From the IMG/VR virus record IMGVR_UViG_2534681662_000014, positions 1-24,458 of that record: 24,458 bases of DNA. One strand, 5' to 3'. Position 1 is the first letter of the stretch. Each line of letters begins with the position of its first letter. Positions 6,001-9,000 of this stretch are shown here, one piece after another. Made by a program: the position numbers. The stretch comes from a virus (taxonomy: Duplodnaviria; Heunggongvirae; Uroviricota; Caudoviricetes).

Positions 6001-9000
6001 AATCAAGGGCAACATTACTTACTCTTTTGGACCTTGTCTTACATGAGCACCGGAAGAAATTCGGCACTCCCTATAATCAGTTGAATGGGAAAAAGGCTCT
6101 GGTTCACCTTATTCTGATGAAGCATCACTGGATGCCAAAACAGATTAATGAGATGAAATTTGATGAACTTCTTCTTTCAATTCAGGATGAACTCACACTT
6201 GATAAAATAAGCGTAACCGCCCAGAAATTTTTAGATTATCGAGACTGGAGATCACAAATTCATCACTTTGATGATTTTGACGAAAATGAATGGGATCCTA
6301 ATTTGTCTGCACAATATCTAAAGTAACATCCTGTGATAAAACCGTGATTTCCTGATCCAGTTTTTTTAAGGAGTCTATTGTTTCCTGTCGATAAGACAGC
6401 ACTTCACGAAGCTGGTTTATAGCTGCCAGCTTCTTTGTCATCCACTCATAAATTTCCTCATCTGTGTAGCCAGGCGCGACGATTTTGGGTTCTGTTTTGT
6501 GCATTTCACATCTCCTCAAGTTATCAGTTACTTGTTGATGGGGACCAGATTCTTAAAGAGCTAAGCGTCCTGTAGGGCGCTTTTTTGTTGCTAACGAATC
6601 ATCCTGGACTTCATATGCCCCAGGCGGCTACTTCGTGGGCGTCCTGCCTGTTCGTTATCTTTGATATAAAATCTAACTTAACTTAGTTATTATGGCAAGA
6701 GAAAACACCAAACTTTTCTTAGTTCGGTGCCTTAGTTAGAGAAGAGAGGTCTTAGAGTTCGTATTGAACTCCTTTGACTACACCAATGATAAGGCAATTA
6801 CCATTGATAGGGATGTTGGGATACCGAGGATTTAATGGCACTAAAAACTTTTGAGGGCCATCGATGACTAATTTTTTTACTGTAGCTTCGTTTGTTCCAT
6901 CAAGTCGAGCGATGACTATTTTTCCATGACGAGGTTCTGCATCTGGATCTACAATCACTGTTGCGCCTTCTGGTATTGTTGGGAGGCCATTAGGGTTAGT
7001 CATGGAGTCACCTTTAACCTCTAATGCAAATGAGTTATCACCAATCTTTAATGATGTATCTACCCACTTGTCCACTTCACTAAACACTTCTGCTGCCCTG
7101 CACTCAGTAAACTGCCCAGCCTGAACCCACGATATTACAGGAACTCTGCGCATGTTTGTGACGAGTTTGCCTTCAAACTCAGCACCATAAAGAATGTAAT
7201 CTATTGACGTATTGAAGAACTTCGCTAATTTCGAAAGTGCCTCCCCACCAGGGGTATTGATGTCTTTCTCCCAGTACCCCACAGCAACGTCGCTTACTCC
7301 ACAAAATTTACCCAATTCTTTCTGGGACGTTCCGGTAACTCTTCTCAGAGCTTTTATACGCTGACCAACCGTTTCCATAGGAGCACCATTTCTTGAATTG
7401 CTAAGTAATCTTAGTTTTTATTGACCAAAGATAGATTTGTAATTAGCATCTAATAAAACTTAGTTTGGAGGGCGTATGACAACTGACGATATCGAAAGCT
7501 ACTTCGGCAGTATTGAGAAAGTTGCTGCTTTTTTCGGCATAACAACTGAAGCCGTTTATCAGTGGCGAAACCGTCCGGGCCAGTTAATTCCAAAAGGACG
7601 TGCAGCAGAAGCTGCATATAGAACTTGCGGACGGTTGCCATTTAAACCTGAGCTTTATGAAAAATCTAATGGATAAATCGATTAACAGAAACCACAGAAC
7701 GATGAGGCTAACCGTGGGTAAGCATCACTGGAAAGTAGAAAAACAGCCTGAGTGGTACGTGAAAGCTGTCAGAAAAACTATCGCAGCGTTGCCGGGGGGT
7801 TACGCTGAAGCAGCTGACTGGCTGGATGTAACAGAAAACGCATTATTTAACCGCCTTCGTGCCGATGGCGATCAGATTTTCCCGCTGGGATGGGCAATGA
7901 TTTTGCAACGTGCTGGTGGAACTCACTTCATTGCTGACGCTGTGGCGCAGTCTGCAAATGGCGTCTTTGTGTCTCTTCCTGACGTCGAGGATGTGGACAA
8001 CGCCGATATTAACCAGCGCCTGCTGGAAGTCATTGAACAGATTGGCAGTTATTCCAGACAGATTCGTTCGGCAATCGAAGACGGTGTGGTGGAACCGCAT
8101 GAGAAGACAGCAATTAACGACGAGCTGTATCTCTCAATTTCGAAGCTGCAGGAGCATGCAGCACTGGTCTACAAAATCTTTTGCATTTCAGAAAGTAATG
8201 ACGCCCGCGAGTGTGCAGCTCCGGGCGCCGTGGCGTGTCGTGACTGTGGAGAAACTAACGCATGAACAGTTTAACAACACACTACCGTCGCTCGCAACTG
8301 ATTGCGCTTCCTGTACCGGGTGGAAAAGCGAAGGTGGAGTATTGCTATGCAGTTAATGTACCAGGTGACAGGGAAATTGTAACCCACAGCTTTGCTGAGT
8401 GGGCTGTGGGTGATTTCAACCGGCAGAAGGAGACAGTCCTTTGCGACAAGTTAACCGCTGGTTCAAAGATCACTACGGAGTGCCCGTCAGAGTCATTCGT
8501 TGGGAGCCGGAAACACAACGAGTTATCTACCTCCGCGAAGGCTATGAGCATGAGTGCTTCAGCCCGCTCGAACAGTTTCGTCGTAAATTCAGGGAAATAG
8601 AGGTCGGTCATGAGCACTAAATTAACCGGCTATGTATGGGATGGTTGCGCTGCATCAGGCATGAAATTATCCAGCGTGGCAATTATGGCCCGCCTGGCTG
8701 ATTTCAGTAATGACGAAGGTGTGTGCTGGCCATCAATTGAAACCATTGCCCGCCAGATTGGCGCGGGAATGAGTACCGTCAGAACGGCTATCGCACGGCT
8801 GGAAGCAGAAGGCTGGTTAACACGTAAGGCGCGTCGCCAGGGTAACCGCAATGCGTCGAATGTTTATCAGCTTAACGTTGCGAAGCTTCAGGCAGCGGCA
8901 TTTTCTCAACTGTCAGATTCTGACCCGTCAAAATCTGACGCATCAAAATCTGACCCGTCAAAATTTGATGCGTCGAAATCTGGCAAAAAAGCGGGTTTTC

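Follow-up and report, generated by a model that had tools for sequence, protein, structure and literature searches.

A convergent gene pair behind a structured leader RNA and a boxA in the N-less leftward operon of a lambdoid prophage of Escherichia coli

Introduction

Untranslated RNA is a known substrate of Rho, and in phage lambda the first element and the first gene behind the early leftward promoter PL are nutL and N. The lambdoid phage HK022, which is devoid of N, carries the put sites (putL and putR), cis-acting antiterminator RNAs (PMC9378689). The boxA element has the gamma-proteobacterial consensus GYTCTTTAANA (PMC5725501), and boxA/Nus complexes shield rRNA and CRISPR transcripts from Rho (PMC5725501, PMC7665894). 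SfIV, SfII and SfV were described as lacking N, cII and cIII in the SfIV genome paper, which also lists open reading frames (ORFs) 35 and 36 of SfIV as unique proteins whose function is not clear (PMC3851460). Here we analyse the head of the leftward operon in a prophage of this type, carried on a stretch of 24,458 nucleotides (nt) of caudoviral DNA (IMG/VR record IMGVR_UViG_2534681662_000014, positions 1 to 24,458; hereafter ‘the window’), in which two short genes converge behind a predicted promoter, a structured leader RNA and a boxA.

An initial annotation of the window had pointed to an overlap between the 3' ends of these genes, encoding 68 and 144 amino acids (aa), and had suggested either mutual antisense regulation or a toxin/antitoxin-like pairing. 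Our analysis leads us to propose, as a reading that we regard as evenly poised, that the two genes constitute a conserved accessory cassette in the first slot of an N-less leftward operon, that they are antisense-coupled, and that the leader would provide N-independent read-through.

Results

The convergent gene pair

The pair and its immediate signals comprise the following features.

6298–6504, minus strand: 68-aa gene, first of the PL operon, YdfC family (phrog_1744)
6512–6517, minus strand: Shine-Dalgarno sequence GAGGAG of the 68-aa gene, 7 nt upstream of the ATG at 6504, by direct reading
5892–6326, plus strand: 144-aa gene, ECs1072 family (phrog_5286), opposing the PL operon
6298–6326, both strands: 29-nt convergent overlap of the two coding regions, including both stop codons
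5823–5891, plus strand: conserved upstream region of the 144-aa gene with two direct copies of TCCCCAACAA

The 29-nt overlap is borne out by the ORF list and by the RefSeq annotation of E. coli 2 HS-C, which holds the identical two coding sequences with the identical overlap. The convergent pair recurs in six further lineages, namely E. albertii (locus L007), L011, L012/L013, L176/L177, L178 and L179/L180, with the large protein 51–72% and the small one, where intact, ~50–55% identical to the window proteins; the overlaps in the five intact lineages measure 47, 50, 50, 71 and 92 nt. Its place is invariably just 3' of the repressor gene, the type of which differs (several S24, one a 139-aa HTH_3 protein with YdaS/YdaT), and both genes are present in each of the 159 near-identical IMG/VR loci that a contig end does not truncate. 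Recurrence in six lineages with strongly diverged proteins indicates that the arrangement is more than chance.

The product of the first leftward gene is acidic (pI 4.78) and not Arg-rich, and its AlphaFold2 (AF2) model consists of an extended N-terminal peptide and a single 46-residue helix (residues 15–60; predicted local distance difference test score, pLDDT, 90.6), in agreement with its earlier description as an acidic, coiled-coil-like protein with a strong Shine-Dalgarno sequence. Initiation at a TTG would yield 73 aa (6298–6519) from the same ORF, and the ATG at 6504 gives 68 aa. The protein matches phrog_1744 with a PHROG E-value of 6e-35, and tblastn finds it 41% identical over 66 of its 68 aa to the annotated YdfC of Qin-type phages (E 2e-9). 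With similarity over the full length and a place in the operon downstream of the repressor, the gene is a YdfC-family early-left gene. This family is small (32 representatives at 50% clustering, phmmer), and its alignment exhibits a conserved N-terminal motif, EPxI(I/V)APGY(T/S)DEE(I/L)YEWM, followed by a long amphipathic helix. Hits to NICE-3 (Pfam) and CheZ (NCBIfam) lie far under the cut-offs and were rejected as reflecting coiled-coil composition, and a sequence search of the PDB gave no significant match.

Hence, as was noticed initially, the leftward operon does not open with an N-like gene. No early-operon ORF matches an N family in Pfam, NCBIfam or PHROGs, the one antiterminator recognised by Pfam being the Q-type at 12583–12963, and a scan of the window for ORFs of at least 40 aa in a plausible position detected no Arg-rich N-terminal motif; the left operon lies completely inside the window. 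The absence of N is correct but not new, having been published for SfIV, SfII and SfV (PMC3851460); judging from gene order, ORFs 35 and 36 of SfIV would be the two genes of this pair.

The opposing 144-aa protein is matched over its full length by the NCBI family NF033230, ‘ECs1072 family phage-associated protein’ (157.8 bits, curated cut-off 70). Its AF2 model is all-helical (pLDDT 84), and a structure search with this model against PDB and BFVD returned no match. Ratios of nonsynonymous to synonymous substitution rates (dN/dS) are 0.23 and 0.19 for the large gene in unsaturated comparisons and ~0.19–0.28 for the small gene in the less saturated pairs; both cassette genes are under purifying selection. 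The 70–110 nt upstream of the 144-aa gene are better conserved than its coding sequence, with 5823–5891 being near-invariant in nucleotides among lineages whose proteins are only 51–58% identical. Promoter-like sites near this gene are as numerous as expected from shuffled sequence. ECs1072 itself, the distant founding member of the family, yielded a signal that could be measured in Sakai cultures without induction (PMC2241611).

The partners are also found apart. Locus L006 lacks a YdfC-like gene and has a large gene, 56% identical, that is furnished with a hairpin terminator of its own; in Sp4 of strain Sakai, a very remote ECs1072 homologue lies antisense within the PR operon, likewise without a YdfC partner; and Qin-type phages have ydfC without an ECs1072 partner. 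A scan of genome contigs for ECs1072 relatives found two identical loci only, and the first IMG/VR scans yielded near-identical copies only. Given the arrangements in the window lineages, in L006 and in Sp4, the ECs1072 family is consistently an ‘against-the-operon’ gene. In E. albertii (L007, ~1166–1175), a 1-nt difference in a T7/T8 run, which corresponds to the T run at ~6361–6367 of the window, frameshifts the C-terminal third of the YdfC-like gene, and the 144-aa gene is intact but ~25% diverged in nucleotides between flanks that are 97–99% identical; on this comparison, a mosaic boundary lies inside the small gene.

Other occupants of the slot were encountered as well. PhiR29_1 (L191, 1801–2661) carries an alternative cassette of one antisense 242-aa gene without a YdfC-like gene, and retains the 69-nt RNA element, the hairpin and the boxA described below; convergent small genes in the PL-proximal slot also occur in YeP1, AH07, 118970_sal3 and PPompW. 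These alternative occupants make the PL-proximal slot a hotspot for against-operon genes.

Searches of PADLOC, Pfam, NCBIfam and PHROGs revealed no toxin, antitoxin or defence family for either protein, and sequence and structure searches of both revealed no recognisable toxin or antitoxin domain or fold. The grand averages of hydropathy are -0.50 and -0.47, and the AF2 models are those of soluble helical proteins; since neither protein is hydrophobic, a type I toxin is unlikely.

Terminators and antisense reach

Comparison with SfV places the limits of the cassette at 5822/5823 on the left and 6592/6593 on the right, so that it spans ~5823–6592. The features that bear on transcription through it are listed here.

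6563–6588, plus strand: intrinsic terminator of plus-strand transcription (hairpin 6563–6582 with 8-bp stem and 4-nt loop, T6 run)
6702–6733, minus strand: hairpin then UUUUCUCUU, directly after cI and upstream of PL, partly abutting the PL -35 element
5856–5875, no strand assigned: left arm of an inverted repeat, AATCTGG(T/A)TATCCCCAACAA, in the 5' region of the 144-aa gene
6532–6551, no strand assigned: right arm of this repeat, in the 5' untranslated region of the 68-aa gene, directly after the boxA on the PL strand

A terminator scan detected no terminator between the two cassette genes. The only good plus-strand terminator is that at 6563–6588, which is located beyond the 68-aa gene, its Shine-Dalgarno sequence and the boxA and which, with the SfV-based boundaries, falls at the cassette edge. 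As plus-strand RNA the hairpin has a folding energy of -11.0 kcal/mol and a perfect stem with one G.U pair; as minus-strand RNA the G.U pair becomes a C.A mismatch, the energy is -6.5 kcal/mol and there is no U run. The hairpin is thus 4–5 kcal/mol more stable as plus-strand RNA, an asymmetry that is repeated in L007, L013 and L179. In PhiR29_1 the antisense 242-aa gene ends ~20 nt from the conserved leader segment, and we infer that the hairpin serves as terminator of whichever antisense gene fills the slot.

With the terminator lying beyond the whole 68-aa gene, the predicted transcript overlap amounts to ~260 nt rather than 29 nt, and, if the plus-strand gene is transcribed, its mRNA would be antisense to the entire YdfC-like gene. 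We consider antisense coupling of the pair plausible and likely, and the placement of the terminator supports such coupling better than does the 29-nt overlap itself.

A repeat search paired 5856–5875 with 6532–6551, and 5833–5846 with 6531–6544 at 93%. The inverted repeat recurs in L176, L178 and L013. Its motif, AATCTGGATATCCCCAACAA, is common to the 5' regions of both genes and may represent a shared operator or translational control site.

The hairpin at 6702–6733 (-15.1 kcal/mol, z-score -3.7, none of 200 shuffles as stable) likely terminates the repressor transcript, and L011 has the same sequence.

The leader RNA

Between the repressor gene and the cassette, the leftward transcript is predicted to begin with the following features.

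6670–6698, minus strand: PL-like promoter (TTGCCA, 17 nt, TAGATT), from promoter scan and direct reading
6590–6658, minus strand: structured RNA of 69 nt at the 5' end of the PL transcript, a three-helix junction

The consensus match of PL is not significant taken alone, and the promoter draws its support from equivalent promoters 5–12 nt upstream of the RNA element elsewhere; an operator-like palindrome, CTAAGTTAAGTTAG, is situated in and beside the PL spacer. The RNA comprises helices P1 (6 bp), P2 (3 bp, invariant) and P3 (5 bp), an invariant 13-nt linker, CACGAAGUAGCCG, and a conserved loop, GGCAUAUGAA, the linker and the loop both being nearly invariant over the set. In an alignment of 16 sequences (MAFFT, alignment A7), 94.6% of the cells pair and 11 of 14 base pairs show compensatory changes. 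None of 500 shuffles reaches the observed pairing, controls with slid pairing reach 20–42%, and RNAalifold independently predicts the same three-helix structure. Pairing amounts to 95.2% over 74 distinct sequences, the alignment of which was fitted to the model.

By blastn, the element is present in 54 phage records with 10 genus names. Carriers include SfII, SfV, ST64B, SPN3UB, SEN34, mEp237, mEp460 and T5-like Providencia phages, as well as phages of Citrobacter, Klebsiella, Pantoea, Yersinia and Pectobacterium, and the core of the RNA occurs in >120 IMG/VR viral contigs. Rfam 15 holds no match. The element lies 5–12 nt after a predicted promoter and 100–200 nt after the repressor gene in ZF40, YeP1, AH07, ST64B, SPN3UB and mEp460 (in mEp237 the repressor gene is not annotated as such), and in eight phages the genes that come first behind it are neither Arg-rich nor N-like. 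The window and 86 loci gave exactly one match per source, and no second, PR-side copy was found.

Two assignments of the RNA were tried and rejected. Homology to HK022 putL would rest on the short words ACGAAC and CAGGAUGA, which are at chance level; no relation to the put of HK639 was detectable either, and blastn with putL recovers HK75, O276, phiEt88 and HK639 but none of the phages with the 69-nt RNA; a hammerhead or other ribozyme does not fit the junction strands and has no Rfam match.

Further structure was noticed in related leaders. A second conserved hairpin, GTTCCGCCAGCCTGGCG / GTTCCGCTGGCCAGCG, follows the RNA element by ~30–80 nt in L181, L183 and L190 (mEp237, SPN3UB and Chris1), and the L179 leader has this hairpin and lacks the 69-nt element. 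The virulent T5-like Providencia phage vB_PreS_PR1 (L189) carries the same 69-nt RNA in its terminal repeat (1501–1600; 76.8 bits), with a perfect boxA, GCTCTTTAAAA, ~10 nt behind it; a promoter-like site precedes the two in the pre-early region.

The boxA

6551–6561, minus strand (PL transcript): boxA GCTCTTTAAGA, 46 nt upstream of the 68-aa start codon

The search of the leader for nut-like sites, which the initial annotation had called for, yielded this element, which fits GYTCTTTAANA perfectly on the transcribed strand; no other site in the window matches GCTCTTTAANAA perfectly. Each of the seven cassette lineages has the boxA in perfect form, as does Providencia phage PR1, and in a survey of 89 distinct leaders with the RNA element it was present in 11 of the 11 that have a YdfC-like gene. 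Beyond the YdfC stop codon, the PL strand is without a substantial ORF for ~900 nt before yfdP, a stretch made up of the antisense of the 144-aa gene and an STnc100-like region. Exposure of this long untranslated stretch to Rho would offer a rationale for why the boxA travels with the cassette.

Prophage context

The window represents a lambdoid prophage of E. coli of the SfIV/SfV/ST64B type. A prophage of strain 2 HS-C matches the region with 100% identity, phages Kati and vB_EcoS-569R4 and Shigella phage SfIV match it with 98–99.7%, and ~400 of 5,426 complete E. coli genomes contain exactly this region. Neighbouring features are as follows.

1369–1441: tRNA gene
1459–2622, minus strand: integrase (int)
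5558–5781, minus strand (PL strand): STnc100-like (DicF-related) non-coding region between the cassette and yfdP
6752–7378, minus strand: cI-type repressor with HTH_3 and Peptidase_S24 domains (Pfam E 9e-28 and 1e-10)
7476–7676, plus strand: P22_Cro-type gene of the immunity region
12583–12963, plus strand: Q-type antiterminator (Pfam)
13119–13643, minus strand: gene for the outer-membrane lipoprotein Blc (NF007786, 316 bits), shortly after the Q-type gene

From PL near 6670–6698 to the integrase and the tRNA gene, the left operon is thus contained in the window; in transcription order it consists of the 68-aa gene, the non-coding stretch, yfdP-, yfdQ- and yfdR-like genes, small ORFs, an HTH_17 excisionase-like gene and int. 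The region at 5558–5781 matches the full Rfam model RF02076 (STnc100) with 43.4 bits, below the gathering score of 47 (E 3e-8), and 5566–5620 is a weak DicF match (19.4 bits vs 48). The segment at 5722–5749 shows 93–96% identity with 28 nt that lie just 3' of DicF in the phage Tritos genome and with a stretch of PPompW, and the succession of a ydfC-like gene and a DicF-like region recalls the ydfC-dicF order of Qin. The immunity region also holds a CP76/YmfL-type cII-like gene. The Q ORF has 126 aa here, where 250 aa are annotated at the corresponding position of strain 2 HS-C, and the right part of the prophage may be rearranged or truncated.

Discussion

The arrangement suggests the following course of events. 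In the lysogen, PL would be repressed and the plus-strand gene transcribed; its transcript would run antisense over the YdfC-like ORF, the Shine-Dalgarno sequence and the boxA, stop at 6563–6588 before OL/PL, and silence leaky YdfC expression. Upon induction, transcription from PL would pass the hairpin, weak on the minus strand and devoid of a U tract, express YdfC, cross the ~900 nt of untranslated RNA and proceed into yfdP, yfdQ, yfdR, xis and int, and would at the same time interfere with the opposing 144-aa gene. In the place of N, the boxA would recruit NusB, NusE, NusA and NusG as well as SuhB against Rho, as in rRNA operons and CRISPR arrays, and the 5' structured RNA would exert an effect in cis on RNA polymerase, in analogy to HK022 put. 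It is plausible that the leader RNA and the boxA both contribute to N-independent read-through.

Several observations weigh against this proposal. Firstly, the length of the overlap varies between 29 and 92 nt and the C-termini are poorly conserved, so that the overlap as such may not be under selection, and the small gene of E. albertii is frameshifted. Secondly, the upstream region of the 144-aa gene contains no convincing sigma-70 promoter. Thirdly, the boxA is present in only 19 of the 89 distinct leaders with the RNA element, and YeP1, AH07 and 118970_sal3 have antisense genes in the slot without a boxA. At suhB, a boxA near the start codon is repressing and not antiterminating (PMC5725501). 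Finally, the RNA is single-copy and on the PL side only, compared with putL and putR in HK022, and its covariance model R1, run over the HK022 locus that contains PL and PR, found no match at E<=1.

Of the alternatives, the one that fares best, and which we regard as possible though less probable than the proposal of a coupled cassette with an antiterminating leader, is that the leader is not an antiterminator: the RNA would stabilise the 5' end, be a site of processing or act as an operator for a protein, and the boxA would repress translation of the YdfC-like gene in the manner of suhB. Stabilising stem-loops typically sit where this RNA does, at the very 5' end, its single copy on the PL side fits such a role, the boxA at 46 nt from the start codon lies inside the window used for finding suhB-like targets (PMC5725501), and the minimum free energy fold pairs the boxA with the Shine-Dalgarno region. 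However, the unpaired linker and loop are near-invariant across genera, which argues for specific recognition, and the boxA always accompanies the cassette, which creates the long untranslated stretch. Moreover, the RNA is found beside repressors that are unrelated to one another and also in T5-like Providencia phages, so that what its carriers share is most simply a partner from the host, for example RNA polymerase.

Slightly less probable again is that the overlap merely reflects genome compaction, with a lysogen-expressed moron placed beside an early gene and no regulatory role. This would account for the changing overlap length and varying C-termini, for the occurrence of each family alone elsewhere, and for convergent genes being common in the slot (YeP1, AH07, 118970_sal3, PPompW), but it sits uneasily with a pair that stays convergent in seven lineages despite ~50% protein divergence and changed immunity types, with the lack of a terminator between the genes and the presence of a strand-specific one beyond the small gene, and with the inverted-repeat motif common to both 5' regions, which suggests common control.

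A toxin-antitoxin or abortive-infection pair, in which one protein would neutralise the other and the opposite orientation would allow differential expression, would suit a conserved two-gene module in a prophage accessory slot typical of defence genes, a small partner that is a single long predicted helix fit for protein binding, and the parallel co-divergence of the two proteins (58%/55% and 51%/50% identity), but is improbable and not supported, considering that neither protein matches a toxin, antitoxin or defence family in PADLOC, Pfam or NCBIfam, has a structural match or is hydrophobic in character, that the genes are convergent rather than bicistronic and co-directional, and that the partners are not obligate, each family existing alone and E. 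albertii keeping an intact 144-aa gene beside a frameshifted small one. What stands of the initial suggestion is thus its antisense half, as a plausible coupling by terminator placement; the toxin/antitoxin half, with partners that are separable, is not supported.

A more far-reaching version of the cassette proposal is conceivable, which we put forward as speculation and consider rather doubtful. The 69-nt RNA might be a previously unclassified cis-acting antiterminator that modifies RNA polymerase, unrelated in sequence to put, and might, alone or with the boxA, stand in for N in a large set of temperate phages of enterobacteria (SfV, SfII, SfIV, ST64B, ZF40, mEp237 and mEp460 types), while T5-like Providencia phages might use it as well; the YdfC/ECs1072 cassette would then be an antisense pair toggled between lysogeny and lysis that depends on this RNA.

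N is missing from many lambdoid prophages of E. coli, Shigella and Salmonella, the serotype-converting Sf phages among them, and for read-through of their long early-left operon to xis and int the leader RNA and the boxA provide two concrete, mutable candidates. The convergent pair, with its terminator beyond the opposing gene, likewise serves as a compact model of how an accessory gene expressed in the lysogen and an early lytic gene could exclude each other. The content of greatest interest adjoins the pair, namely a widespread, covarying PL-leader RNA absent from Rfam together with a consensus boxA.

Among known systems, the leader RNA resembles the put RNAs of HK022 (PMC9378689) in that both (i) are ~70 nt long and multi-helical and start within a few nt of the PL start, (ii) belong to lambdoid phages without N, and (iii) precede terminator-like structures and long operons. 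They differ in that no similarity is evident in sequence or by covariance model and the blastn families are disjoint, that the leader RNA is a closed three-helix junction whereas put consists of two adjacent stems, and that put copies are found in both early operons whereas the leader RNA has its one copy on the PL side. With N/nutL of lambda, the locus shares the position of its first element and first gene after PL and a boxA on the transcript; in contrast to lambda, the window lacks an N protein or Arg-rich motif, and its hairpin, for which no protein partner is known, precedes the boxA instead of following it. A hairpin and then a boxA is the order found in rrn leaders. As in boxA antitermination of rRNA and CRISPR transcripts (PMC5725501, PMC7665894), a perfect boxA consensus stands before a long untranslated transcript, although the context here is a phage early operon and the same element represses at suhB.

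As for the genes, the Qin/dicB operon (dicA - ydfA ydfB ydfC dicF dicB) likewise has a YdfC homologue downstream of a repressor and then a DicF-type small RNA region. In the window, however, the YdfC-like gene comes first, there is no ydfA, ydfB or dicB, and a gene of the ECs1072 family, oppositely oriented, separates the ydfC-like gene from the small RNA region. The convergent transcript itself recalls oop of lambda, which overlaps the 3' end of the early gene cII; in the window the overlap would probably extend over the whole gene, and, unlike oop, the antisense transcript would be a protein-coding mRNA. In this respect, the 144-aa gene is akin to prophage morons, being an accessory gene that is set against the early operon and ends at its own predicted intrinsic terminator.

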